Shown here: positions 22,922-38,050 of the stretch, piece by piece
Layout of the letters: every line of letters starts with the position of its first letter
Numbering within the stretch: position 1 is the stretch's first letter
Source of the DNA: Candidatus Lambdaproteobacteria bacterium RIFOXYD2_FULL_50_16
GTDB lineage: Bacteria > SAR324 > XYD2-FULL-50-16
Direction: 5' to 3'
DNA length: 54,510 nucleotides
NCBI GenBank assembly: GCA_001783695.1
Contig: MFNE01000001.1
Span: forward strand, 70 to 54,579
The notes under the pieces: model-generated
Seen by the model: only the letters and a program-made list of their open reading frames with translations
Database searches by the model: none
Told to the model about the DNA's origin: nothing
Translations under genes and position numbers: made by a program

Positions 22922-22947
22922 AAGAGTTTGCCAAACTCTTTTTTTTT
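22922..22947 (+). terminator. Terminator-like hairpin between purF and nuoA
   Basis: aagagttt-gcc-aaactctt followed by a T-run; the stem is AT-rich and weak. Confidence 0.5.
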
Positions 22948-23029
22948 GGGTAGCGTTGGCTCGAATTACGCCTTGTGGGTTACCCGGAAATCCAGACCGG
23001 ACGGCCTTAGGCCCATACCAGACCTGATT

Positions 23030-23437
23030 ATGCTGTTTAACTTCGGGGTGGCTTTAACCTTCTTGATCGTGATGGCGGGCTTCGTCGCTGGCAACCTGCT
23101 TGTGCAGTTGCTCCTTAGCCCACATAACAACTACGATGCCAAGAAGATGCCTTATGACTGCGGCGAAGAGCCGGTGGGCTCTGGCTACCGACAGTATAAC
23201 TTACGGTTTTACTTGGTCGCATTGGTTTTTGTGATCTTCGATGTGGAAATCGCGTTTATGTATCCAGTCACTGCTGTCTTTAAAGACCTAACCCAAGATG
23301 GTTGGGGACTGATGGCTTTTGTAGAAATCGCGATTTTTGTATTGATTCTGACGGTTGCCTTTGTTTACACCTGGAGCGAAGGGGGTCTGGATTGGATTCG
23401 TGAGCAGGTAAAACGGCCCACGTCGCCTAGGGAATAA
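23030..23437 (+). CDS. nuoA: Complex I subunit A; start ATG 23030
   Basis: [32 protein letters not shown]. Confidence 0.95.
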
Positions 23438-23441
23438 GAAG

Positions 23442-23930
23442 ATGAACAACCTCTTACACAGTTTCGAGTCAGACGGCATTGTCTTGACTACTCTTGATCA
23501 AGCGCTCAATTGGACCAGGGCCAATTCTCTGTTTTACATGTTGTTTGGCTTGGCTTGCTGCGGGATTGAAATGATGCAAACCGGTGGCCCTCGTGGCGAC
23601 CTGGACCGCTTCGGTTCGGTCCCCCGTGCTTCACCCAGACAGTCAGACTTAATGATTGTTGCCGGAACGGTAACCCTTAAGATGGCCAGCCGGGTTAAAC
23701 GCCTTTACGACCAAATGGCCGAGCCTCGATATGTGATTTCGATGGGCAGTTGCTCGAACACGGGTGGACTGTTTCAGTCGGGTTATTCAGTCTTGCATGG
23801 TGTGGACCGGGTAATTCCGGTAGATGTTTATCTGCCCGGTTGCCCTCCAAGGCCCGAGGCGCTCACCTCTGCGTTGATCGAGATCCAAAAAAAGATCAAA
23901 GCCGAGCGTTACCTGCGCAAACAGAAGTGA
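23442..23930 (+). CDS. nuoB: Complex I subunit B (N2 cluster)
   Basis: [34 protein letters not shown]. Confidence 0.97.
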
Positions 23931-23934
23931 ACCT

Positions 23935-24462
23935 ATGAGCTTAGATACAAACGCAATCTTAGAGCGACTTAAAGCCCAAGCCCCGGCACTGCGGCTTGAG
24001 CTGCAAAGCGGGGCGGGCGACCTAGCCATTAAGGCAGAGCCCCATGACTTGGCCGAGCTAATGAAGCTTTGCAAAAGCGACCCAGAGCTTAAATTTGAAT
24101 GTTTGGCCAGCCAAACCGCTAGCCATTATCCAAAGACCGAAACTACTGGGGAACATTTTAAACTTTATTATCACCTCTTAAGCCACAGTCTAAAACACCA
24201 ATTAGTGGTGGTTATAGAGGCTTTGGGCTCTGCACCAGAGGTGGATTCGGTGGTTAGTGTTTGGAACGCAGCTAACTGGCTAGAACGAGAGACCTGGGAC
24301 CTTTTAGGGGTTAGCTTTAAAGGGCATCCCGACCTAAGGCGGATTATGAATCCCGAAGATTGGGAAGGGCACCCACTACGCAAAGATTACGTGATTCCGA
24401 CCCAGTATCAAGACATCGACAACAAACCTTCGGAGATCGCCGAAAGTTTCAAGTTGAGTTAA
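23935..24462 (+). CDS. nuoC: Complex I subunit C
   Basis: ANWLERETWDLLG..F.GHPDLRRI..P.DW.GHPLRKDY. Confidence 0.96.
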   Translation: MSLDTNAILERLKAQAPALRLELQSGAGDLAIKAEPHDLAELMKLCKSDPELKFECLASQTASHYPKTETTGEHFKLYYHLLSHSLKHQLVVVIEALGSAPEVDSVVSVWNAANWLERETWDLLGVSFKGHPDLRRIMNPEDWEGHPLRKDYVIPTQYQDIDNKPSEIAESFKLS

Positions 24463-24473
24463 GGATTAAAGGC

Positions 24474-25592
24474 ATGGGCAAGCTCAGAACAGAATTGATG
24501 ACCATCAACATGGGTCCCCAACACCCTTCGACCCATGGGGTAATCCGGTTTATCATCGATACCGATGGCGAGGTTATTCACCGCTGCGAGCCAGATGTGG
24601 GTTATCTGCACCGCTCTATCGAAAAAATTACTGAACATTTGAGCTGGCAGGGGATTGTTCCCTTTACTGATCGGGTAGATTACCTTTGCGCAATGAACTC
24701 CAACTGGGCCTATGTGATGGCCGTGGAAAAGATGATCGCAGTGGAGGTGCCGCGGCGCGCTGAATTTATTCGGGTAATGGTAGGTGAGCTCAACCGGATA
24801 TCGAGCCACATGATCGCTATCGGCACCACGGATATGGACATGGGAGCCTTCACCCCCTTTATCCAACTCTTGCGCGAACGCGAATATATTAACGACCTCC
24901 TTGAGATGGTAAGCGGGGCGCGGTTAACCTATAATTACCTCTCCATCGGCGGGGTTAATTACGACATTCCTCGCAACTGGCTTTTTAAAGTAGAAGAGTT
25001 TTTGAATCATTTTGATCCCGCAATGGAACAAATGAACCGGCTATGTACCTATAACCGGATCTTTATCAATCGCATGGCTAATCTGGCGCCGATTTCTAAA
25101 GAGTTGGCTTTTGACTATAACCTCGTAGGTCCGAACCTTCGTGGTTCGGGGGTTAAATCGGATGTCCGCCGAGACCAGCCTTATTCGGTATATTCTGAAC
25201 TCGACTTTGAAATACCAGTCGGTGAGGGTTTTGGCGGGGAAGTGGGCGATTGTTACGACCGTTTTATGGTGCGGATCTTAGAGGTTCGTGAGTCGATCAA
25301 AATCCTTCGCCAATGCATCAAGATGATGCCCGAGGGCCCGATTCAAGCGAAGGTTAAAAACACCATTAAACCTCCAGAAGGCCACTTCTACTCACGCAGT
25401 GAAACCCCCAGAGGAGACACAGGCTATTTTATTGAGTCAAGCGGGGGAACCTCGCCTTACCGCTTAAAGATTAGGTCAGGAAGTTTTACTGGAATTTCGA
25501 TCACTCCCGCAATCTCCAAGGGTATCTTGATCGCCGACCTAGTGGCGGTGATTGGCTCCTTGGATATTGTTGCACCCGAATTGGACCGATAA
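24474..25592 (+). CDS. nuoD: Complex I subunit D; start ATG 24474
   Basis: NMGPQHPSTHG, GYLHR..EK, DRVDY, ELNRI.SH, E.PRG, C-terminal SLD.V..E.DR; no NiFe CxxC pairs. Confidence 0.97.
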   Translation: MGKLRTELMTINMGPQHPSTHGVIRFIIDTDGEVIHRCEPDVGYLHRSIEKITEHLSWQGIVPFTDRVDYLCAMNSNWAYVMAVEKMIAVEVPRRAEFIRVMVGELNRISSHMIAIGTTDMDMGAFTPFIQLLREREYINDLLEMVSGARLTYNYLSIGGVNYDIPRNWLFKVEEFLNHFDPAMEQMNRLCTYNRIFINRMANLAPISKELAFDYNLVGPNLRGSGVKSDVRRDQPYSVYSELDFEIPVGEGFGGEVGDCYDRFMVRILEVRESIKILRQCIKMMPEGPIQAKVKNTIKPPEGHFYSRSETPRGDTGYFIESSGGTSPYRLKIRSGSFTGISITPAISKGILIADLVAVIGSLDIVAPELDR

Positions 25593-25595
25593 GCC

Positions 25596-26846
25596 ATGAT
25601 CATCGAACTCCTGACTTCGGTAGGAATCCCCGAGCTGGCCGCCAAATTTATTTTTGCCGGAGCAGTTGGGTTTTTGGCCATAAACTTCATCGCCGTTTAT
25701 GCGGGTGTGGTTTCGGTAATCGAGCGCAAAGTGGCCGCCAAGATGCAGTCCCGAGTCGGACCCAACCGGGTTGGCCCTGGAGGTTGGCTTCAGTGGCTCG
25801 CTGATGGAATCAAGTTGATGTTAAAAGAGGATATCCACCCTCACGGAGCGGATCACTTCTTATTTAACATGGCTCCCTTTTTAATCGTTTGCGGTGTGGC
25901 CGGGGCCTTTGCGGTACTTCCTTGGGGACCAGCCCACGCCATTGCGGCTGACCTTAACGTCGGGATTCTTTATTTTATATCGATCACCTCCTTAGTGGTT
26001 GTCGGCATTTTAATGGCCGGTTGGTCTTCAAACAACAAATGGGCCTTGATCGGCGGGATGCGAGCCGCAGCCCAGATCGTTTCCTACGAGATTCCGGTAG
26101 CCATGGGATTGCTACCGGCAATTATGATTGTAGGCAGCCTGCAAGTATCGGCATTGACTGAGTCCCAAGGCTTTATGCCCTGGGACTGGACCGCTTTTGA
26201 CAACCCCTTTGCGCTGCTCGGGTTTTTAGTCTTTTTGACTGGCTCTGTAGCCGAATCCAACCGCGCTCCCTTTGATTTACCAGAAGCCGAATCTGAGTTG
26301 GTCGCTGGCTTTTTTACCGAATACTCGGGTTTCCGCTTTGCCTGCTTCACCCTAGGCGAGTTTGCGGCCACTTGGGCGATTGGGGCGATTACCACCGCCG
26401 TCTATTTAGGGGGTGGTCAATTGCCTCCTTCCATGGCCGGGATGATCCCCCTTTCGATTGGGCTTTTTGTCCTAAAAACCATGTCAGTGGTTTTCTTGCT
26501 AATGTGGTTCCGCTGGACCTTGCCCCGCTTCCGTATTGATCAGATGATGGATTTCAGTTGGAAATACCTACTACCGCTTTCGCTGGTGGCCTTTTTCGGG
26601 CAAGCGATTTACATCTTGATCTCGTGGGACAGCCCGGCGATGCAAACCATTGTTTCACACCTGTTGGCGCTGGCGGTGTTAGGGGTCATTTTCTTGTTTG
26701 CTGGAAGAGTAGCCTACAACATCAAGATTCAACTGATCCCGATCAACACGCTATCTACCGAGATTGGCCCCCTCGAACGCGCTGGCAAAATTGCCCCGCC
26801 GCCAGCAGTGGTCGAGGAAGTCGAAACGGCTGAGGAGGGCGCATGA
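25596..26846 (+). CDS. nuoH: Complex I subunit H with C-terminal extension
   Basis: ERK..A..Q.R.GPNRVG, ADGIKL..KE, AQ.VSYE, NR.PFDLPEAESELV.G..TEYSG, RWTLPRFR.DQ. Confidence 0.96.
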   Translation: MIIELLTSVGIPELAAKFIFAGAVGFLAINFIAVYAGVVSVIERKVAAKMQSRVGPNRVGPGGWLQWLADGIKLMLKEDIHPHGADHFLFNMAPFLIVCGVAGAFAVLPWGPAHAIAADLNVGILYFISITSLVVVGILMAGWSSNNKWALIGGMRAAAQIVSYEIPVAMGLLPAIMIVGSLQVSALTESQGFMPWDWTAFDNPFALLGFLVFLTGSVAESNRAPFDLPEAESELVAGFFTEYSGFRFACFTLGEFAATWAIGAITTAVYLGGGQLPPSMAGMIPLSIGLFVLKTMSVVFLLMWFRWTLPRFRIDQMMDFSWKYLLPLSLVAFFGQAIYILISWDSPAMQTIVSHLLALAVLGVIFLFAGRVAYNIKIQLIPINTLSTEIGPLERAGKIAPPPAVVEEVETAEEGA

Positions 26847-27478
26847 ACAGGAAACCCAGATTGAGCTTTAAAGCCTATTTCGGGCAAATCGTCAGCGGGG
26901 TGCAGACCATGTTCGAGGGGATGAGTATCTCCCTAGCCAGTACCTTTTTGAAGGTGCAAACCGTTGAATATCCAGACGTTGACATTAGCAGCCGCGAGTC
27001 CTTGCGCCAGTCCACCTACAAGGGGAACATGGCGGGTATGCCTGAGAACTATCGTGGGATTCTAAAAGTCGATTTGGATATTTGTACGGCTTGTTTGATT
27101 TGCATGAAGGCCTGTCCGATCGACTGCATTGCTATTACTAACGTCAAATGCGACAAACGCAAGTTTAACGGTAAGTCGGGTAAAGCCGCAGTCCAGACCC
27201 GAGCGGCAACCCGCTTTGATATTGATATTGGCAAGTGTATGTTTTGTGGACTTTGTGTAATCCCCTGCCCGACTGGAGCTATTGCCCATTCGAAGATCTT
27301 CGAGATGAACCGGGGCAGTTTGGCCGAGCTTGTCGAGCGGTTTGTTACCCCTGAACAGGCAGCCAAACACGAAGCACGCGCTTTAGAGATTGAAACGGAA
27401 GAAGCCGAAAAAAAGGCCGCTAAAGCCAAAACTGACGCCGAAGCCAAGGCTAAAGTTGAACCTAAAGGGGAAGCATGA
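26843..27478 (+). CDS. nuoI: Complex I subunit I (2x 4Fe-4S) with insertions and a Lys/Ala/Glu-rich tail
   Basis: T.EYP, YRG, CTACLICMKACP, CMFCGLCVIPCP. Confidence 0.93.
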   Translation: MNRKPRLSFKAYFGQIVSGVQTMFEGMSISLASTFLKVQTVEYPDVDISSRESLRQSTYKGNMAGMPENYRGILKVDLDICTACLICMKACPIDCIAITNVKCDKRKFNGKSGKAAVQTRAATRFDIDIGKCMFCGLCVIPCPTGAIAHSKIFEMNRGSLAELVERFVTPEQAAKHEARALEIETEEAEKKAAKAKTDAEAKAKVEPKGEA

Positions 27479-27972
27479 CACAGTCAGTCTTTTTTGCGAT
27501 TTTTTCGGGCCTGACCTTAGTCACTGCCGGGATTGTGGCGTTGAATCAAAACCTGATTCGTGCCGCCTTTGCCCTGTTTTTCTGCCTCTTCGCGGTTGCT
27601 GGGGTCTATGTCACCCTAGGCGGCGACTTTGTGGCCATGGTCCAATTGATGGTTTACGCTGGCGGGGTCGCAATTTTATTAACCTTCGGAGCGATGCTAA
27701 CCGCTGATGTTAGCCAACCTTCTGGGTCTAACCTAAACTTCCAAGGGGTTTGGGCGATGATTGGGGGAGTGTCGTTTTTTAGTGTTTTATACTACGTACT
27801 CGAAGAGACCCAGTGGCCCCTAAAGGGCACCAATTATTTGGACCCTACTACCAAAGAACTGGGCAAACTTTTACTCAAAGACTATTTGCTACCCTTTGAG
27901 GTGATCTCCTTTTTGCTCTTGATCGCTATGGTGGGCGCGGTTTACTTGGTTTTAAAGGGGGAACAGGAATGA
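27475..27972 (+). CDS. nuoJ: Complex I subunit J
   Basis: F.A.VQL.VYAGGV.IL..F..ML, YLLPFE.IS.LLL.A.VGA. Confidence 0.95.
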   Translation: MTQSVFFAIFSGLTLVTAGIVALNQNLIRAAFALFFCLFAVAGVYVTLGGDFVAMVQLMVYAGGVAILLTFGAMLTADVSQPSGSNLNFQGVWAMIGGVSFFSVLYYVLEETQWPLKGTNYLDPTTKELGKLLLKDYLLPFEVISFLLLIAMVGAVYLVLKGEQE

Positions 27973-28280
27973 GCCTTTCTTTGGTGCTAGCCATTTCCGC
28001 TGGCCTGTTTGCTTTGGGCACGATGATGTTTGTGGTCAAAAAAAATCTAATTGCGATTTTGATGGGGGTCGAACTCCTAATGAACGCAGCGGCCTTAAAC
28101 TTTATGGGTTTTTCCTATTACAGTCCGGCCAAGGGGCACCCCCTAGACGGACAGGTTTTCGCGTTGTTTGTGATCTTGATCGCCGCCGCCGAAGCAGTTG
28201 TGGCCTTAGGGATAGCCATTGCGGTTTATAAAGAGTTCGGCCATGTTTCGGCAGACAAACTCAGCCAGTTGGAGGGCTAG
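27969..28280 (+). CDS. nuoK: Complex I subunit K
   Basis: N.I..LMGVEL..NA, GQVFA.FV...AAAEA. Confidence 0.96.
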   Translation: MSLSLVLAISAGLFALGTMMFVVKKNLIAILMGVELLMNAAALNFMGFSYYSPAKGHPLDGQVFALFVILIAAAEAVVALGIAIAVYKEFGHVSADKLSQLEG

Positions 28281-30368
28281 ATGATCTCGATGATTCCCCT
28301 AGTCCCCATTTTGCCGCTGGTTGGAGCCCTAATCATTGGGTTATTTGGCAAACGAATTCAGGCTACTATCGGTGAGTTTGCCACGGGAGTTTTAGGTTGT
28401 GCTATGCCCGGTTTGGCTGCATTAATAAGTTTTGGTAGTTTTTTCGAGTTAATAGCTCGCCCAGCAACAGACCGGATTATTGTATCCCACTTGGCCCCCT
28501 GGGTCAGTGTAGCTGATTTCCAGGTCGAGTGGGCCTTCCGTTATGACCCCTTATCGGCGATGATGTTAATGATCATCACCGGCATTGGTACCCTGATCCA
28601 TGTCTATTCCATGGGGTACATGCACGAGGACCCTAGTTACTGGCGCTTCTTTAGCTATATCAACCTGTTTTTGGGGGCGATGTTGCTCTTGGTTTTGGGC
28701 GACAACCTTTTGATTATGTTCCTCGGTTGGGAAGGGGTAGGGCTTTGTAGTTACTTGTTGATTGGTTTCTGGTTTAACAACCCCGACTACGCCTATGCTG
28801 GACGAAAAGCCTTTATTGTCAACCGCATTGGTGACTTAGGTTTTTTAACCGGAATGTTTACCTTGATCCTCTTCTCGGCGGCCAACTTTGAGGTGGTGAC
28901 CTTAAGCTTCGGGGAATTACAAGGTCGCATGGATACCCTGGCCCAATATACGCTCTGGGGATTCCCGGTTTTAGAGGTCGCCGCCTTTTGTTTCTTTGTG
29001 GGCGCGATTGGCAAGTCGGCGCAGATCCCTTTGTACGTCTGGTTGCCCGACGCCATGGCCGGACCGACTCCGGTTTCGGCCTTGATTCACGCGGCCACCA
29101 TGGTAACCGCCGGGGTTTATATGATCGCCCGGATGTACTTTATGTACAGTCTCGCTCATTTTACCCTTGAGTTTATCGCGATTATCGCCGCCCTGACCTG
29201 CTTTTTCTCGGCCACCATTGGCATGGCCCAGTTCGACATTAAAAAGGTCTTGGCCTACTCGACCGTAAGCCAGTTGGGTTATATGTTTTTAGCCATGGGG
29301 GTTGGTGCCTACTCGGCAGGAACCTTCCACCTCTTGACCCATGCCGCCTTTAAAGCTGCACTGTTTATGGGCTCTGGCTCGGTGATTATCGCTATGCACC
29401 ACGAGCAAGACATGCGCAAGATGGGTGGGCTCTTAAAAAAGATGCCTATTACCGGCTGGGCCTTCATTTTCGCCACTTTGGCCATTATGGGGTTCCCTGG
29501 CACCTCGGGTTTTTTCTCTAAAGACGAAATCCTAGAAAAGGCTTTTGAAGAAAGTGTTTGGCTTTGGTTAGTTGGTTTTATTGTCGCGGGGATGACCAGC
29601 TTCTATATGTGGCGGGCCGTCTTTATGACCTTTTTTGGTGAATTCAAAGGGGATCACCATACTTGGGAACATTGCCACGAGCAGCCCAAGCGGACCGTTG
29701 TGCCCATTGCGATTTTAGCAGCCTTGGCCCTAAGTTTGGGATTCTTAAACGTCCCCGACTTTATGGGCGGCGATTACAGCTTTTCCAGATACTTAAGCCC
29801 AGTGGTTAAAAACCTGGAAGAGGCGCAGGTCCACGGAATGCCCGACTCGATCGACGGCGAACAGCACGCCCCGGTCCACGCCGAGGAACATGGGGATTTG
29901 TTGATAGAGGTGGGTTTGATGGTGGGTTCGGTCACTTGGACCCTCTTGACCGCCTTCTTGGCGTATTACCTTTACTTGGTTAATCCCAAGGCTCGCGAAG
30001 CCCTTATGAGCCGGGCAGGACCACAAGCGGTCTTTAAAGTGCTTAATAATAAGTACTATGTGGACGAATTTTACGACCTAGTAGTAGTCGGCCCCCTGAA
30101 GAAGTGTTACGCCTTTATGGGTGACTTCGATAAATACGTGGTCGATGGTGCAGTGAACTTGGCTGGGTATGTAGGACGTGGCTTAGGAATTTTAGCCGGG
30201 TTTTTAGACCAGCATATTGTGGACGGCGCGGTCAACGAGGTCGCATGGGCCTCGCAAACAACAGGAAAAGGCTTTAGTCTGCTCCAATCTGGGCGAATTC
30301 AAGCCTTAGTAGGAGCTACCCTGGTGTTTTTCGCGGCGGTGTTAACCGTTTGGATTGTTTATCTCTAG
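28281..30368 (+). CDS. nuoL: Complex I subunit L (antiporter-like) with lengthened transverse helix
   Basis: GWEGVGLCSYLLIGFW, KAF.VNRIGD, KSAQ.PL.VWLPDAMAGPTPVSALIHAATMV, HAAFKA, GF.SKDEI, Q.G near the C-terminus. Confidence 0.97.
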   Translation: MISMIPLVPILPLVGALIIGLFGKRIQATIGEFATGVLGCAMPGLAALISFGSFFELIARPATDRIIVSHLAPWVSVADFQVEWAFRYDPLSAMMLMIITGIGTLIHVYSMGYMHEDPSYWRFFSYINLFLGAMLLLVLGDNLLIMFLGWEGVGLCSYLLIGFWFNNPDYAYAGRKAFIVNRIGDLGFLTGMFTLILFSAANFEVVTLSFGELQGRMDTLAQYTLWGFPVLEVAAFCFFVGAIGKSAQIPLYVWLPDAMAGPTPVSALIHAATMVTAGVYMIARMYFMYSLAHFTLEFIAIIAALTCFFSATIGMAQFDIKKVLAYSTVSQLGYMFLAMGVGAYSAGTFHLLTHAAFKAALFMGSGSVIIAMHHEQDMRKMGGLLKKMPITGWAFIFATLAIMGFPGTSGFFSKDEILEKAFEESVWLWLVGFIVAGMTSFYMWRAVFMTFFGEFKGDHHTWEHCHEQPKRTVVPIAILAALALSLGFLNVPDFMGGDYSFSRYLSPVVKNLEEAQVHGMPDSIDGEQHAPVHAEEHGDLLIEVGLMVGSVTWTLLTAFLAYYLYLVNPKAREALMSRAGPQAVFKVLNNKYYVDEFYDLVVVGPLKKCYAFMGDFDKYVVDGAVNLAGYVGRGLGILAGFLDQHIVDGAVNEVAWASQTTGKGFSLLQSGRIQALVGATLVFFAAVLTVWIVYL

Positions 30369-30407
30369 TCAACGGACCAAAGGTCTCGCAAACAAACTGA
30401 GGTTGTG

Positions 30408-31916
30408 ATGAGTCATCTTCTATCCTGGGTCGTCTTTTTGCCCCTGATCCCCATCCCGCTTCTGTTCTTGCTACCCAAGGACAAAGGCAAGTGGCTAGCG
30501 CTAGCGGTTACTCTGGCCGATTTTGTCATAGGGTTGCCGTTGATCCTCGGCTTTGACCGGGCTATGCCGGGGGTAAGCAACCCAGGTGAGATGCAGTTCG
30601 TTGAGCGGGCTACTTGGATACCAAGCCTTGGGGTCGAATATTATATCGGCATCGACGGCCTATCGGTAACCATGATCCTTCTAACCCTGTTAATTGGGGT
30701 CTTGGCGGTTTTAGCTAGCTGGAACATAGCCAAACACGAAGCGGGATACTGGTCGATGTTTTTACTGCTGCAAACCGCCATGTTAGGGGTGTTTGTCTCG
30801 TTAGACCTGATCCTCTTCTTCGTATTTTGGGAGGTTATGCTCTTCCCCATGTACTTCCTAATCGGAATCTGGGGTGGGCCAAGGCGGGTTTACGCTGCCA
30901 TCAAATTCTTTTTATACACCCTTTTTGGGGGTGTGGGTATGCTCCTAGCCTTTATCGCCATTTGGTACTACGCGCCTGGGCAGCGCACTTGGGACATGAT
31001 CGAAATCTTGCAACGAGTTTCTGCGGGTGGACATTTCAACGGCCCTGATATTTTTGGCGTCGAATTTGCCAAGATGATCTTTGTGGTCTTGTTTGTGGGC
31101 TTCGCCATCAAGGTGCCGATCTTCCCGTTCCACACTTGGTTGCCTGACGCCCACGTTGAAGCGCCCACCGCCATATCGGTTATCCTGGCCGGGGTGCTTC
31201 TTAAAATGGGAACCTACGGGATGCTTCGAATCAACTTTACCCTGTTCCCCGAAGCTTTTCACTGGTTCAGAACCTTCTTGGTGGTCCTGGCGGTAATCAA
31301 CATCGTTTACGGGGCCCTCTGCGCCTTGGCGCAGTCGGACCTTAAAAAAATGGTGGCTTACTCCTCGGTGAGCCACATGGGCTTTATCCTCTTAGGCATG
31401 GCGGCAGCCACCCCACAGGGGATGAACGGTGCTATGTTGCAGATGTTTAACCACGGAACCATCACGGCCATGCTCTTCCTTTTGGTAGGCGTCATCTACG
31501 ACCGCGCCCACCACCGCCAAATCGACGGGTTCGGCGGCATGGCCTCGGTTATGCCTAAATTCGCCGCCCTGACCAGCTTCGCCTTTATGGCGGCTATTGG
31601 CCTACCTGGACTTTCAGGCTTTGTTTCAGAACTTCTGATTTTGTCAGGTAGTTTTAAGGTTTATCAGGTAGCCACTATCATCGCTGGGTTAGGGATCATC
31701 TTTGGAGCCGGGTACATGCTCTGGAGTTACCAGCGGGTCTTTTTTGGCAAGGTTAACGAGAAGTATGCCGATTTTAAAGATGTAAACGTGATTGAGGTTG
31801 CCAGCTTGGTACCCTTGTTGGTGATAGTGGTTTATCTCGGTATTTTCCCAAACAACCTGATCGTCTTTTTCGAGCAGTCGATGAACCACATCAGTGAGCT
31901 TCTTCTGGCGAGGTAG
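30408..31916 (+). CDS. nuoM: Complex I subunit M
   Basis: G.DG.S, FWE.ML.PMY, IK.P.FPFHTWLPDAHVEAPT, LLKMG.YG, AYSSVSHMG, GLPG..GFV.E. Confidence 0.97.
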   Translation: MSHLLSWVVFLPLIPIPLLFLLPKDKGKWLALAVTLADFVIGLPLILGFDRAMPGVSNPGEMQFVERATWIPSLGVEYYIGIDGLSVTMILLTLLIGVLAVLASWNIAKHEAGYWSMFLLLQTAMLGVFVSLDLILFFVFWEVMLFPMYFLIGIWGGPRRVYAAIKFFLYTLFGGVGMLLAFIAIWYYAPGQRTWDMIEILQRVSAGGHFNGPDIFGVEFAKMIFVVLFVGFAIKVPIFPFHTWLPDAHVEAPTAISVILAGVLLKMGTYGMLRINFTLFPEAFHWFRTFLVVLAVINIVYGALCALAQSDLKKMVAYSSVSHMGFILLGMAAATPQGMNGAMLQMFNHGTITAMLFLLVGVIYDRAHHRQIDGFGGMASVMPKFAALTSFAFMAAIGLPGLSGFVSELLILSGSFKVYQVATIIAGLGIIFGAGYMLWSYQRVFFGKVNEKYADFKDVNVIEVASLVPLLVIVVYLGIFPNNLIVFFEQSMNHISELLLAR

Positions 31917-31921
31917 GAATT

Positions 31922-33349
31922 ATGTTTAACACGCTACCCCATCTAGCCCACCTGCCAGCACACCTTGTGCTGTCTTTGGGATTGCTCTTTTTCTTCCTTG
32001 GAAAGACCATCCCTGGGATCAAGAAGCTTCCGGCTACCGCTATTTTTATTGCCATGCTGGCTTTAGCAGCAGCTTTAGAAGCGAGCGAAACTGGAAGTCA
32101 CGACCTCTTTTTTGGGATGGTCCAAACCGATAGTTTCTCTAGGTTATACAACCAACTCTATTTTATTGTTAGTGCTCTAGTGGTGGTGATGCTCCATTTC
32201 TCGGACGAAATGGACCGTGAAAACGACTGGGAGAACTACGGGTTACTTAGCTGTTTGATTCTGGGCATGATGTTTATGACCAGTGCCTCACACCTTTTAA
32301 TGGCCGTAATCGCCATTGAGATGGTTTCGATTCCTAGTTACTTGTTGGTCGCTCTTAACCGAAAAAACCCGGCCTCGAAAGAAGCAAGTATGAAATATAT
32401 CCTCTTTGGCAGTTTTGCTACTGGGGTTATGCTTTACGGGATGTCATTCCTCTTCGGGATGACCGGCAGTCTGACCTTTGCCGATATCTGGAACGGGTTA
32501 GGGAGTGAATCGGTAGGGACTCCTATTTACTATCTCGCCATTGGTTTTACCTTGGCTGGTATGTCCTTTAAAGTGGCTGCGGTTCCGTTTCATTTTTGGT
32601 GCCCCGATGCATACCAAGCCGCCCCCACGCCGATTACTGCCTTTTTGTCGGTCGCGCCCAAGGTAGCAGGCTTGACCTTGATGATGCGGTTTTTTGCAGA
32701 CCATCTGCCGGTACAAGGCGATTCCTTGACCCAGATGTTGTCGATTGTGGCTATTGTCACCATGGTGGTTGGCTCCTTCGCCGCCCTTAAACAAACCGAT
32801 ATCAAACGTCTTCTGGCTTATAGTTCAATAGCCCACGCCGGATTTTTGATGATGGGTGTGGCGGTGTTAAACACCGATGGGCGCCAAGCGGTTTTCTTTT
32901 ACATCCCCATTTACATCTTGATGAACCTAGGGGCCTTTATGGCCATTATTTACTTGGCTCAAGATCACGACTATAAAATCTCTGCCTTTAACGGGGCGGT
33001 TAAATCCAACCCCCTATTAGTAACCGCCTTTGCCGTCTGCACCTTGTCCTTGGCAGGGATACCGCCTTTTGCTGGGTTTGTGGGGAAATTTTATCTCTTT
33101 AAAGTGGCCATGGAAAAAGGTCTTTATCCGATGATCCTTGCCGCGGGTATCTCTACGGTAGTTTCCCTTTATTTCTACGTAAGTCTATTAAAGGTGATGA
33201 TTATCGATCAAGAGGCTCGAACCTTCTCCCCCTTGGGTTCCAAGGTGCCCGTGGTTTTTGTGTCTCTTTGCGCGTTGCCTCTAGTATTTTTAGGGTTATA
33301 TTGGGTGCCACTGGTGAACTGGGCCGACAAGGTCAGGCTTTTCCAGTAG
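31922..33349 (+). CDS. nuoN: Complex I subunit N
   Basis: E..S..SY.L, EA..KY...G, FKV.AVPFH.W.PD.Y, KRLLAYSSIAH.G, LSLAGIPP..GF.GK. Confidence 0.96.
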   Translation: MFNTLPHLAHLPAHLVLSLGLLFFFLGKTIPGIKKLPATAIFIAMLALAAALEASETGSHDLFFGMVQTDSFSRLYNQLYFIVSALVVVMLHFSDEMDRENDWENYGLLSCLILGMMFMTSASHLLMAVIAIEMVSIPSYLLVALNRKNPASKEASMKYILFGSFATGVMLYGMSFLFGMTGSLTFADIWNGLGSESVGTPIYYLAIGFTLAGMSFKVAAVPFHFWCPDAYQAAPTPITAFLSVAPKVAGLTLMMRFFADHLPVQGDSLTQMLSIVAIVTMVVGSFAALKQTDIKRLLAYSSIAHAGFLMMGVAVLNTDGRQAVFFYIPIYILMNLGAFMAIIYLAQDHDYKISAFNGAVKSNPLLVTAFAVCTLSLAGIPPFAGFVGKFYLFKVAMEKGLYPMILAAGISTVVSLYFYVSLLKVMIIDQEARTFSPLGSKVPVVFVSLCALPLVFLGLYWVPLVNWADKVRLFQ

Positions 33350-33496: not shown

Positions 33497-36400
33497 ATGA
33501 GCAGCCCAAAATACCCCGGTACCCGTACCACAACCAACGGTAATACCCTTGTTGCGCTTTATACTGAAGCGCGGATTGCGGAAGCCGGAATCTTTTATCC
33601 GATCACCCCTTCGACTGAAATGGGTGAGTTGTTCCAACATTCTTACTCGCAAGGTGAACTCAACGTTTTTGGCGATGCTAAAATCGCCCTTGAGGCCGAA
33701 GGGGAGCATGCCGCTCAATCGGGGTCGATTGCGGCTTCGGTGACCGGCAAACGGGTGGTTAACTTTACCTCTGGACAGGGAGTGGTTTACGGTAGTGAAC
33801 CCTACTATCATGCGCCCTCGAAGTTGAGTACCATGGTGCTAAACATCGCCGCACGGGCCTTGACTAAGTCAGCCCTAAACGTACATTGCGGACACGACGA
33901 CGTTTACACGGTGCTAGATACGGGCTGGACGATGCTGTTTGCTAAAGACGCCCAGCAGGCTTCAGACCAAGCGATGATTTTGCGAAAGGTCAACGAATTA
34001 TCCCTAAATCCTGGGATCAACATTCAAGACGGTTTTTTAACCAGCCACTTAGAGCGCACCTTCCGCATCCCCGAAGCCGGGCTGATCCGCGAATTTTTGG
34101 GCCGTTCAGACGACTTGATTGATTGCCCCACCGAGGCCCAACGCGAACTTTTTGGGCCTAAACGCCGCCGAATCCCAATTGGAATGGACCTAAAAAACCC
34201 TTTATTGTTGGGCTCGGTCCAAAACCAAGAGCATTACATGAACGGCGTTATTGCTCGCCGAAATAACTTTACCGAACAAATTTTAGGTTTTTTAGAAGAC
34301 GCCTATAAAGAGTTTGGCGAGTTAACGGGCCGCCACTACGGCCTGATAAGCCAGCACAACTGCGAAAAAGCGGAGACCGTTTTTATCTCCTTGGGCAGTT
34401 CTGCTGAAAACATGGAAGCCGCAGTGGATTATCTCAAGGCCACTCGCGGAGAAGAAGTGGGTGTGATTCACTTAAACGTGATCCGCCCCTTCCCAGAAAA
34501 AGCGGTAATCGAAGCGTTGCGTGGCAAAAAGAACGTGATTGTCCTAGAGCGGATGGACGACCAAACCGCTTCGGACAACCCGATGGCCCGCGACATCCGC
34601 ACCGCCTTGTCTAAAGCCGCCACCAACCACCGAACCAACGCTTTTGCAGACCTACCAAGCCTTTCGCCAGATGAAGTTCCGCGAATCTTTAGTGGGGTCT
34701 ATGGTTTAGGTAGTCGTGACTTCCGCCCAGAGGGCGTGCTGGGTGCCTACGAATTTGTCACCGGCAAAATCAAGCGCACCGACGGCAAATCGGCCGCCGA
34801 TGGGGTCAGCTTCATTTATATCGGGGTGGACCATCCCTACTCGGTTATCTCTGAAGATACCCCAAGTTTACTCCCTGACGGCGCCATTGCCATTCGCTTC
34901 CACTCGATTGGCGGCTGGGGCGCGATTACCACGGGCAAAAACCTGGGTGAAGTAATTGGATCGATTTCTAGTGTTATCGCTAAAAATCAAAACCGTATCG
35001 GCGACGACGGACAGCCCGAAGAGATCTTCCATGTCAGCGCCAACCCTAAATACGGTTCCGAGAAAAAAGGGGCCCCGACCAACTATTTCTTGGTCGCCGC
35101 GCCTGAACGGATTCGGGTCAATTGTGACCTTCGCCATGTTAACGTGGTGCTTTGTTGCGACCCTAAAGCCTTCACTCACACCAACCCCTTAGAGGGTATG
35201 GCCGATGGTGGGGCGTTGATTATTGAAACCGATGAATCGTCCTCAGCGGGCCTCTGGAGCCGCATCCCCAAGCGTTACCGCGCCGACATAATCAAGCGCA
35301 AGATTCGCCTTTACGGCCTAGCTGGCTTCCAAATCGCCCACAAAGCGACTGACCGTGAAGACCTCCAGTACCGAATGCAAGGCAACAGCTTTCTGGGAGC
35401 CTTTTTCAAGGTTTCTCCACTGTTAGAAAAATACGGGATCAGCGAAGACGAATTCAAAAAAATCGTAGAAGCCCAATACAACAAGAAGTTTGGCCGCTTT
35501 GGTGAGGCCGTAGTGAAGTCGAACATGACCGTTATGATCGACGGCTTCTCTGGGGTTTGGCAGGCCGAATACGGGGCCTTAGATGCCCCGGACCGTAGCT
35601 TGATGCGCGGAGACACCTTGATGCCTGTTAGCGGGGCGACCCGCTTCGGGGCCGATACCCTGGTCGCTCAGCCTCAAAAACACCCCTACAAAACCTTAGC
35701 GAAATACGACAGTGAATTCCGCATTGGTTTGGGTTATAATCAACCAGCTTCGGCGTTGGCCTCGACCGGGGTTATGGCCTCAGCGACGGCGGCAACCAAC
35801 TCCAAATACGTCTCTCGACGCCGAGTGCCGATTTATTACCCAGAAAACTGTACCCAGTGTATGGCCTGTATCGCCTCTTGCCCAGATACAGCTATGCCCA
35901 ACACCTCCCAAGACGTGGCCGTGGTACTCCAGACGGCTATTGGCAACTATGTTTCTGACGAAAGCGCCCGCGAGACGCTGATGGGTGCGGTAGAAGCGAT
36001 GGACCAAAGCTTGCGGAAAAAGATGTTGACTGCAGTGGAAGACAAAAAGGCAGCGCCCCCGTCCTTAACCCAATTGGTTGAAGGCGAATTAGCCGGCATT
36101 GATATTTCGGCCAACTCGAAAGCCGAGTTGTTAAGCATTTTAGGCAAAGTGCCCTTTGCTTACGCCAAGTCGCGGACGATTTTCGAGATCCCCGAGAAAA
36201 AAGAGGCTGGTGCCGGTGGTTTGTTCACCATCTTAATCTCAGATCTTTGTAAGGGTTGTGGCGAATGTGTCCAAGAATGTGGGGAACACCAAGCTTTGAA
36301 GATGGAGCCCGAAACCGAACAAATCAACGCCGATTTAGCTACGGGGATCCGCTTTTTAGACCTGTTACCTGAGACGCCACAAAAGTTTTTAGGGAAATAT

Positions 36401-38050
36401 GACTACGAAAACCCCCTAGAAACCCGCGCAGCAGTCTTGCACAACCATTTGATGGTCAGGAGCAACTACGAAGCCATTGTGAGTGGTGACGGCTCTTGTG
36501 CCGGTTGTGGCGAAAAAACCATCTTACGTGCGGTGGCCAGCATTACTGAAGCGGTCATGCGGCCTTTGTACCACCAAAAAGCGGGCCGTCTCACTGAAAA
36601 AGCCAAGGTTTTAGCCACCGAAGGGGCGGCTAAACTCAAGGCACTCAAAGAAAAAGACACCGATGCTTACCAGTGGTGGGCCAAGTCGGTGAAGCATTGC
36701 CTGCTTAATTTAGGCGGGGAAAACGAAAAAGACACGGATGCCCGAATCGAAGAAGGCTTTATGGGGGGGGACCCAGATTTGATCAAAGTGATTGATATGG
36801 TGCTTCGCCAGGATGCCTTTAACCACCGCGATTTGCGTGCTGTGGACGGACGGTATTCCAACGGGATGTCTGTATTGATGATGTCTAGCTCGACTGGTTG
36901 TAACTCGGTTTATGGCTCGACCCACCCCAACAACCCACACCCTTACCCCTGGATGAACAGCCTCTTCCAGGACAGCCCAACCTTAGCCTGGATCTTTGGC
37001 GAGACCATGATCATGGACCATGCTAAACGCAGTGTGATCCCTGAACGCTTGGCCGACGCCTTGCTTTCTGGCAAAGGTTGCAGCAAAACCGATTATTTCC
37101 ATTTGACCCACTTCTCGGATCATTACATGACCGATCAAGAGGTCTTGGAACTGCCCAAGGCTTGGGCGATTGGTGGCGACGGGGCAATGGGAGATATTGG
37201 GTTCCAAAACCTGTCCAAGGTGATGTTGCAAGGGCGGCCAAACGTCAAGTGTTTGATGTTAGATACCCAGGTTTACTCAAACACGGGCGGGCAAAACTCA
37301 GATTCGTCGATTATGCCCGGCGGCTACGACATGAACCAACATGGCGCTGCTACCGAAGGTAAATTGATTGAACGAAAAGAAGTCGCCTCAATCTTTATGG
37401 CAGGCCACGGTAGCCCCTATGTCGCCCAGGTCAGTATGGCCGACTCGGCGGCGATGTACCGCAGTGTGATGGACGCCATTGCCTATAGAGGTACCGCGTT
37501 CCTCCAAGCCTTTACCACCTGCCAGCCAGAACACGGCGTGGCCGACAATATGTCCACCGCCCAAGCCCAGAAGGTTCGAGATTCCAGGGCTATGCCCCAA
37601 GTGGTCTTCGATCCTAACCTTGGCGAACGCTACGAGTTAGCCCTGTCGGTCAAAGGCAACCCCAACCCTAAAAAGGATTGGATGCAAAAGAAAGGACCCA
37701 ACGGAAATACTTACAACTACACGGTTGCGCACTGGGCTACCAGTGAACAGCGTTTCCGCAAGCACTTCTTCTCGGTTAAGCCGGGTGAAGAAAGCAAGCT
37801 GGTGCATTTAGATGAAGTATTACCTAAGGTTAGCCAGCAGGACATCCATCACCGCCGTTATCTGGACCCCAACGCCACCTGTCATGTTCCTGAAAAGGGC
37901 GTGTATATTATGATGGAAAAGGATGACAAAATGGTTCCCATGGGTATTAGTCGCCAGTTGGTGCTCTTCTGCGTTGAGCGCCGCAAAAACTGGCGTATGA
38001 TCCAGTCGATGGCTGGTATTCAGTCGGAGGACTACGGCACCCCTGCCTAG
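33497..38050 (+). CDS. Single-chain 2-oxoacid (pyruvate):ferredoxin/flavodoxin oxidoreductase, large NifJ-like type
   Basis: YPITPSTEMGE, FTSGQG, YGLGS.DF, GG.G..T..K, KYGSEKKG, CTQCMACIASCP, CKGCGECVQEC, CAGCGE, TPP motif GGDG...DIG...DTQVYSNTGGQ, C.PEHG. Confidence 0.93.
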   Translation: MSSPKYPGTRTTTNGNTLVALYTEARIAEAGIFYPITPSTEMGELFQHSYSQGELNVFGDAKIALEAEGEHAAQSGSIAASVTGKRVVNFTSGQGVVYGSEPYYHAPSKLSTMVLNIAARALTKSALNVHCGHDDVYTVLDTGWTMLFAKDAQQASDQAMILRKVNELSLNPGINIQDGFLTSHLERTFRIPEAGLIREFLGRSDDLIDCPTEAQRELFGPKRRRIPIGMDLKNPLLLGSVQNQEHYMNGVIARRNNFTEQILGFLEDAYKEFGELTGRHYGLISQHNCEKAETVFISLGSSAENMEAAVDYLKATRGEEVGVIHLNVIRPFPEKAVIEALRGKKNVIVLERMDDQTASDNPMARDIRTALSKAATNHRTNAFADLPSLSPDEVPRIFSGVYGLGSRDFRPEGVLGAYEFVTGKIKRTDGKSAADGVSFIYIGVDHPYSVISEDTPSLLPDGAIAIRFHSIGGWGAITTGKNLGEVIGSISSVIAKNQNRIGDDGQPEEIFHVSANPKYGSEKKGAPTNYFLVAAPERIRVNCDLRHVNVVLCCDPKAFTHTNPLEGMADGGALIIETDESSSAGLWSRIPKRYRADIIKRKIRLYGLAGFQIAHKATDREDLQYRMQGNSFLGAFFKVSPLLEKYGISEDEFKKIVEAQYNKKFGRFGEAVVKSNMTVMIDGFSGVWQAEYGALDAPDRSLMRGDTLMPVSGATRFGADTLVAQPQKHPYKTLAKYDSEFRIGLGYNQPASALASTGVMASATAATNSKYVSRRRVPIYYPENCTQCMACIASCPDTAMPNTSQDVAVVLQTAIGNYVSDESARETLMGAVEAMDQSLRKKMLTAVEDKKAAPPSLTQLVEGELAGIDISANSKAELLSILGKVPFAYAKSRTIFEIPEKKEAGAGGLFTILISDLCKGCGECVQECGEHQALKMEPETEQINADLATGIRFLDLLPETPQKFLGKYDYENPLETRAAVLHNHLMVRSNYEAIVSGDGSCAGCGEKTILRAVASITEAVMRPLYHQKAGRLTEKAKVLATEGAAKLKALKEKDTDAYQWWAKSVKHCLLNLGGENEKDTDARIEEGFMGGDPDLIKVIDMVLRQDAFNHRDLRAVDGRYSNGMSVLMMSSSTGCNSVYGSTHPNNPHPYPWMNSLFQDSPTLAWIFGETMIMDHAKRSVIPERLADALLSGKGCSKTDYFHLTHFSDHYMTDQEVLELPKAWAIGGDGAMGDIGFQNLSKVMLQGRPNVKCLMLDTQVYSNTGGQNSDSSIMPGGYDMNQHGAATEGKLIERKEVASIFMAGHGSPYVAQVSMADSAAMYRSVMDAIAYRGTAFLQAFTTCQPEHGVADNMSTAQAQKVRDSRAMPQVVFDPNLGERYELALSVKGNPNPKKDWMQKKGPNGNTYNYTVAHWATSEQRFRKHFFSVKPGEESKLVHLDEVLPKVSQQDIHHRRYLDPNATCHVPEKGVYIMMEKDDKMVPMGISRQLVLFCVERRKNWRMIQSMAGIQSEDYGTPA

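Follow-up and report, generated by a model that had tools for sequence, protein, structure and literature searches.

The nuo operon in the window analysed here, a stretch of 54,510 nucleotides (nt) from contig MFNE01000001.1 of Candidatus Lambdaproteobacteria bacterium RIFOXYD2_FULL_50_16 (SAR324), encodes a complex I in which one 26-residue unit of the lateral helix (HL) of the antiporter-like subunit NuoL, with the motif xDxxxVDGxVN, was duplicated in tandem long ago. Judged by alignment, this insert is of the type found in 2M complex I, whose operons hold two nuoM genes, and it is not specific to 2M enzymes. The operon in the window has a single nuoM, which leaves two options: one subunit is used twice, or the helix is anchored in another way.

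A duplicated 26-residue unit in the lateral helix of NuoL

NuoL is encoded at 28281-30368 (695 amino acids, aa; this and all other window coordinates are on the forward strand) and contains the antiporter domains Proton_antipo_N (PF00662, E-value 7.8e-23) and Proton_antipo_M (PF00361, E-value 2.1e-81). Its best relatives in the PDB are NuoL, Nqo12 and NdhF chains. These domains, the succession of transmembrane helix 15 (TM15), a long lateral helix and TM16, and the place of the gene between nuoK and nuoM identify the protein as a member of the NuoL/Nqo12/ND5 family.

The translated tail reads YVDEFYD...FDKYVVDGAVN...LDQHIVDGAVN...LLQSG. The first motif copy occupies residues 616-626 (nt 30126-30158) and the second residues 642-652 (nt 30204-30236). 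The two DGAVN motifs start with a D at nt 30144 and at nt 30222, a distance of 78 nt (26 residues), and the span from D595 of DEFY (nt 30063) to Q669 of QSG (nt 30285) measures 75 residues, both as the original prediction had counted. In ordinary NuoL the latter span is 49-51 residues, 26 fewer.

The two repeat units, residues 612-637 (30114-30191) and 638-663 (30192-30269), are identical at 9 of 26 positions and gave an ungapped BLOSUM62 score of 44, which was not reached in any of 100,000 shuffles. When the last 170 residues of NuoL were matched against themselves, an offset of 26 scored best (46) and the runner-up scored 15. A direct DNA repeat at the 78-nt spacing was looked for and none was found, indicating that the tandem duplication is old.

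The net insertion that the original prediction had assumed was recovered by two alignments. In a MAFFT alignment of representative tails the short forms showed one clean gap of about 26 columns, and in a phmmer search against PDB chains the lone VDYNVVDGVVN of Thermosynechococcus NdhF1 (6hum_F, residues 604-614) aligned to both copies, indicating that NuoL has 26 extra residues. Counted from the Y of YxDExY, the Q stands at +76 in the window NuoL and at +50 to +52 in 31 loci with a short helix. Canonical NuoL/Nqo12/ND5 proteins (Escherichia coli 3RKO, T. thermophilus 4HE8 and T. elongatus NdhF1 6HUM) have the same 16 helices, the DEFY anchor and a QxG entry to the last helix, but a single DGxVN unit, whereas the window NuoL has one 26-residue unit more.

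Both units are well conserved. Among 52 diverse sequences Y592, D595, E596 and Y598 of the YVDEFY anchor are invariant, as are D617, D622, V625 and N626 of unit 1 together with the G of the first motif copy; unit 2 has an invariant D643 and D648 and an almost invariant V647, G649, V651 and N652. In a second alignment, of 16 sequences, D, V and N do not vary in either motif copy, and G is constant in at least one of the two. In the tail alignment, short NuoL, long NuoL from one-nuoM operons and long NuoL from two-nuoM operons all have the Q-[ST]-G entry to TM16, which suggests that TM16 docks at the same site in all three forms.

An AlphaFold2 model of NuoL was built from the 52-sequence alignment (mean predicted local distance difference test score, pLDDT, 86.4; predicted template modelling score 0.83). 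It has the ordinary 16-helix layout (TM1-14, TM15, HL, TM16). TM15 (residues 536-567, 29886-29981) is followed by a lateral element (residues 569-669, 29985-30287), in which two short helices, 569-577 and 579-590, precede HL. The YVDEFY anchor motif (residues 593-598, 30057-30074) lies at the beginning of HL, which was modelled as one unbroken helix of 78 residues (592-669), about 117 Å long, with no hairpin or loop-out; the QSG entry motif (669-671) and TM16 (673-694) lie at 30285-30362. The pLDDT along HL is 58-85, with 58-68 over residues 640-680. The best Foldseek matches were NuoL chains, with TM-scores of 0.73-0.90. The root mean square deviation (rmsd) was about 7-11 Å against full-length NuoL chains and about 3.5 Å against entries without the far helix end, indicating that the end of HL in the model is displaced from its place in known enzymes.

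Conservation of the long helix within the family

The nuo operon is present in 17 of 18 genomes of the same family, and all 17 operons encode the long helix with both DGxVN motifs; a regular expression placed the Q at +76 in 16 of them, and the tail of the 17th has equal length. The full nuoA-B-C-D-H-I-J-K-L-M-N order with one nuoM was found in 15, the other two ending at a contig edge inside nuoM, and a second nuoM was seen in none of the 17. The original prediction had allowed that the long helix might be a relic. This is unlikely, since the exact insert length is kept in all 17 operons, none of which shows a second nuoM, and since the motif residues are strongly conserved in the 52 diverse sequences.

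The 20 loci taken from the same order and class but from outside the family encode a shorter NuoL (627-655 aa), with the Q at +51 or +52 where it could be measured. The nearest NuoL outside the family (locus L075, G022:C20) comes from a small genome of 1.6 Mb and has a very divergent tail, in which the DEFY anchor is lost, both repeat units are degenerate and the helix is 17 residues shorter; the operon is otherwise identical, with 11 genes and the same PFOR-like neighbour downstream as in the window. G022 had been considered as a clean short-helix sister and was rejected because of the 17-residue difference and the missing anchor.

In the 18th family genome (G006, a metagenome-assembled genome, MAG, 68% complete) antiporter-like matches were found only on a 12.4-kb contig (L095, G006:C69:1-12447). 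The nuoL-like and nuoM-like genes of this contig are only 37-40% identical to those of the window and contain in-frame TGA, mostly at sites where the window has Trp. The contig is probably misbinned DNA of an organism or organelle that reads TGA as Trp.

Helix length and the number of nuoM genes

With the window NuoL tail as seed, 54 loci were sampled, 36 from genomes and 18 from metagenomes. The sample is small; it is not biased towards long helices, since the word that most matches had in common, YVDEFYDL, is located upstream of the insert. A long helix was found in 23 loci, of which 9 have one nuoM, 11 have two and 3 are cut by a contig end. Among the 31 loci with a short helix, 28 have one nuoM, none has two and 3 are cut by a contig end. 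In these 54 loci two nuoM genes always occur with a long helix, and a long helix does not require two nuoM genes.

The long-helix loci with one nuoM belong to Binataceae (L004, L005), Bacillota (L010), Symbiobacteriaceae (L016) and Acidobacteriota (L018), with a SAR324-like metagenome contig (L077) and Symbiobacteriaceae-like contigs (L078-L080) in addition. Those with two nuoM are of the Nitrospira type (L009, L011, L012, L013, L019, L034, L085, L087) or of the Acidobacteriaceae type (L007, L008, L086). Two of the loci have broken genes: nuoL is split into several frames in L018, an Acidobacteriota MAG, and the first nuoM is split in two in L012, a Nitrospirae MAG, either of which may reflect frameshifts or assembly error.

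The Q stands at +76 in all 11 L-M-M-N loci, as in the window, and the window insert matches that of the Nitrospira and Acidobacteriaceae 2M operons both in length and in the 26 alignment columns that it fills. The repeat had originally been called a 2M signature. It does have the place and length seen in real L-M-M-N operons, but it is not a mark of these operons, since 9 of the 20 long-helix loci with readable downstream genes have one nuoM. The motifs themselves differ between the two classes. In the one-nuoM long class a recognisable motif is present in both units, mostly as DGxVN, with a degenerate unit 2 in the Symbiobacteriaceae type (DALVT, DTLVT). In the 11 sampled 2M loci, on the other hand, the motif has diverged in both copies, to DGxVR and YGGLN in Nitrospira and to NGAVQ and NSGFD in Acidobacteriaceae, whereas both copies are canonical DGAVN in the window. 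A protein search with the tail gave 641 relatives, the best 120 of which, a set biased towards the long form and without gene context, were examined. The YxDExY anchor is present in 118 of these, all with the Q at +76 or +77, and 113 keep both DGxVN motifs; the two sequences without the anchor have two motif copies by eye.

The 2M complex I of Nitrospira and other bacteria (Chadwick et al. 2018) is taken here as described in three later papers (PMC6606698, PMC9040806, PMC7117926). Two of these describe a 26-residue HL insert in the Nitrospira 2M NuoL and present it as the hallmark of an enzyme with a fourth proton pump (PMC9040806, PMC6606698). The window has the same insert at the same place in HL, with one nuoM instead of two. 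The Nitrospira 2M operons likewise lack nuoE and nuoF (PMC6606698), and a proposed link to ferredoxin is common to both systems. The HL insert was also noted by Yu et al. 2022 in single-NuoM complexes, namely in NuoL of Complex_I_1 and Complex_I_2 of Ca. Manganitrophaceae, which that paper depicts without an extra NuoM (PMC9040806). By that description, these complexes are like the one in the window in having the insert with a single nuoM; the Ca. Manganitrophaceae genomes, however, contain several sets of complex I genes and have NuoM and MrpD genes to spare, whereas the window genome has only three antiporter-like genes. No other report of a single-nuoM operon with a long NuoL helix was found in a literature search, and such operons may be listed by Chadwick et al. 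2018 or in Fig. S2 of Yu et al. What the present analysis adds is that the same insert, better conserved, occurs in many one-nuoM operons, including those of genomes without any spare antiporter-like gene.

Antiporter-like genes in the operon and in the genome

The operon holds nuoL, nuoM and nuoN as its only antiporter-like genes, as the original prediction had stated and as the list of open reading frames (ORFs) and the Pfam matches agree. The gaps between nuoL and nuoM (36 nt) and between nuoM and nuoN (5 nt) leave no space for another gene. The window thus has the HL insert of about 26 residues and no second nuoM.

The window genome (G000; 3.14 Mb, 54 contigs, 97.9% complete) has three PF00361 matches among four candidates scored, and these are nuoL, nuoM and nuoN. 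Two other genomes of the family, G004 (97% complete) and G013 (100% complete), also have only three PF00361 genes each. No fourth antiporter-like gene was therefore found in these three genomes of 97-100% completeness, in a genome-wide search for further subunits that covered the PF00361 family only.

The sole nuoM lies at 30405-31916 (PF00361, PF01059) and nuoN at 31922-33349 (PF00361; class N by best BLASTP match). With 695 aa in NuoL, 503 in NuoM and 475 in NuoN, the three proteins add up to 1673 residues. The lengths of NuoM and NuoN are ordinary, and neither protein has an insert of more than 11 residues tied to the one-nuoM long-helix class. Extra helices in NuoM or NuoN were considered and none was found, the largest class-tied insert being that of 11 residues at NuoM 208-218. 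About 80% of the sequences in the one-nuoM long-helix set have this insert (31026-31058, region GGHFNGPDIFG); it is essentially specific to the family of the window and rare elsewhere.

Evolution of the insert

In trees of the NuoL core (first 500 residues) long forms were found in several places, each beside short forms, and the one-nuoM long forms adjoined short forms in three places. A single clade of all long forms, with L075 and L076 included, was rejected for the NuoL core (50 log-likelihood units worse, p = 0.005 in the approximately unbiased, AU, test). These trees imply either repeated gain or transfer of the +26 step or its repeated loss, and the step seems to have persisted more than once alongside a single nuoM. 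The window NuoL core is not sister to 2M NuoL, and no 2M relative stands near the window clade on the NuoL tree. In a FastTree tree of NuoM, the second NuoM of 2M operons grouped with the NuoM of one-nuoM long operons, on long branches and with an unstarred support of 93; we give this grouping little weight and regard it as a lead only.

A single NuoM may fill two positions

From the sequences and the model we tentatively prefer a reading in which HL measures out four antiporter-like positions, two of which would be filled by the product of the single nuoM. The longer HL would act as a ruler for an L-M-M-N membrane arm in which the nuoM product occupies two neighbouring positions, each of the two DGxVN units would touch one NuoM, and TM16 would dock on NuoN, as in ordinary complex I. 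An arm with four positions would add a fifth pumped proton per two electrons, and the extra pump would suit an enzyme working between ferredoxin and quinone, in either direction.

The motif xDxxxVDGxVN presumably matches the kink at which HL of E. coli complex I touches NuoM. According to a study of E. coli complex I, this kink stands about 26 residues before TM16 (PMC3274701). Such a spacing equals the width of one antiporter-like subunit, and a 26-residue duplication would add one subunit-width and one contact motif. Since the insert has the length and the alignment columns seen in the 11 L-M-M-N loci, and since two nuoM were found in none of the 31 short-helix loci, the same geometry is the simplest assumption. 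The conservation of both motifs, the unchanged entry to TM16, the unbroken modelled helix and the lack of another candidate gene also argue for four positions, and four positions with one gene would mean that NuoM is used twice.

A wider form of this proposal, which we hold more doubtfully, is that the 26-residue duplication in NuoL turns a three-pump into a four-pump L-M-M-N enzyme with two adjacent NuoM protomers from one nuoM, that the one-nuoM long-helix class (SAR324, Binataceae, Symbiobacteriaceae and some Acidobacteriota) consists of such enzymes, and that they were a stepping stone to the two-nuoM operons. Already on the first reading, one-nuoM long-helix operons would be the simplest route to four-pump enzymes, for which one in-frame duplication would suffice, and two-nuoM operons would be a later or parallel specialisation. 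The repeated keeping of the +26 step with one nuoM would be easier to explain if the step brought an immediate gain.

Several points weigh against the double use of NuoM. The subunit numbers of this complex are inferred from sequence and model, and we know of no case in which one antiporter-like gene product takes two positions in such a complex. The AlphaFold2 model is of NuoL alone, with pLDDT of only 58-85 along HL, and helices modelled alone tend to come out straight. The four-subunit arm of the 2M enzymes is itself deduced from genes, no solved structure having been found in the literature. The group used in the AU test was defined once a first tree had been seen, and the trees contain long branches. 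Finally, E. coli complex I tolerates flexible inserts of 6-7 residues at some HL sites, indicating that slack in the helix is possible (PMC3274701).

The other arrangements differ in what the longer helix would touch. One that we consider unlikely, although not greatly so, is a 1:1:1 L-M-N arm along which the helix reaches further: unit 1 would lie on NuoM and unit 2 on NuoN, and TM16 would be placed about 39 Å further on, at NuoK/NuoJ/NuoA or near NuoH, clamping the whole membrane arm. This would agree with a gene content of simply L, M and N, with the straight modelled helix, about 39 Å longer than an ordinary one, and with the displaced helix end to which the rmsd of about 7-11 Å against full-length chains points. 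NuoH is also long in the window clade (386-417 aa), but its length does not track that of the helix, since L075 and some short forms have a long NuoH as well. The entry motif of TM16 is moreover the same as in the short forms, which dock on NuoN; the second canonical DGxVN would have to bind NuoN, which meets no such motif in ordinary enzymes and has no insert tied to the one-nuoM long class; and the exact 2M length would be a coincidence of descent.

Slack in a 1:1:1 arm is less probable again. The extra 26 residues would form a bulge, a kink or a short hairpin on the cytoplasmic face and would be neutral or left over from an ancestor with two NuoM. The tolerance of E. coli for flexible 6-7 residue inserts at G532 and P564 (PMC3274701) lends some credit to this, as do the glycine-rich linker of unit 1 (LAGYVGRGLGILAG) and the low pLDDT of residues 640-680 (58-68). 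A neutral relic would be expected to decay or disappear, however, whereas the exact length and both motifs are kept throughout the 17 family members and also outside the phylum in loci with one nuoM; the model has no helix break, and the NuoL tree places no 2M relative near the clade.

That a fourth membrane subunit which is not antiporter-like, encoded elsewhere, fills the extra position is improbable: a genome-wide search confined to PF00361 leaves room for it, but the window shows no additional ORF inside the operon or next to it, the same 11-gene order is found in all 15 complete family operons, and no candidate was identified. Recruitment of an orphan NuoM or MrpD from elsewhere in the genome, which the original prediction had offered, is hardly credible with only three PF00361 genes in the window genome, G004 and G013, even if the other one-nuoM long-helix genomes checked (Binataceae, Bacillota, Symbiobacteriaceae, Acidobacteriota) have 5-7, so that such borrowing is ruled out only in the small SAR324 genomes.

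If NuoM is indeed used twice, the number of pumps could be set by helix length alone, which would be a new principle of assembly and a simple route for enzymes that work near the thermodynamic limit between ferredoxin and quinone. If it is not, HL has a second mode of anchoring, and the length of the insert is no guide to pump number when it is read from genomes.

The nuo operon and its neighbours

The operon (22928-33349) consists of 11 genes identified by Pfam, nuoA-B-C-D-H-I-J-K-L-M-N. It begins with nuoA (22928-23437; PF00507, E-value 6.8e-31), nuoB (23442-23930; PF01058), nuoC (23935-24462; PF00329) and nuoD (24360-25592; PF00346, listed with a TTG start). These are followed by nuoH (25596-26846; PF00146), nuoI (26843-27478; Fer4 families), nuoJ (27475-27972; PF00499) and nuoK (27969-28280; PF00420). 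The nuoH gene comes directly after nuoD, and nuoE, nuoF and nuoG are absent from the operon, which is thus of the eleven-subunit type without the N-module. Two start sites may have been placed too early by the longest-ORF rule. The nuoA ORF of 169 aa is longer than most of its relatives (134-172 aa), and the longest nuoD ORF overlaps nuoC by 103 nt (24360-24462), its true start being probably further downstream.

Cyanobacterial NDH-1 is ferredoxin-dependent. It has the same set of A, B, C, D, H, I, J, K, L, M and N, without an NADH-oxidising module, but differs from the window complex in its short HL and its extra Ndh subunits. The PDB titles among the Foldseek matches of NuoL include 'Fd-NDH-1L'.

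A large fused gene for a PFOR-like 2-oxoacid:ferredoxin oxidoreductase (33497-38050, 1517 aa; PF01855, PF01558, PF17147) follows directly after nuoN, as context outside the complex. With an operon lacking nuoEFG and this gene next to it, the gene context fits the earlier remark that the redox span of the enzyme may start from ferredoxin/PFOR. The same neighbour, at 61-76% identity, occurs after nuoN in 6 of the 17 family loci (L040, L041, L042, L044, L049, L052) and in L075 of G022. The link between complex I and this ferredoxin-reducing enzyme is conserved in part of the family. One NuoF-like gene (PF01512), part of a 575-aa frame, is found outside the nuo operon, at G000:C43:72663-73175.

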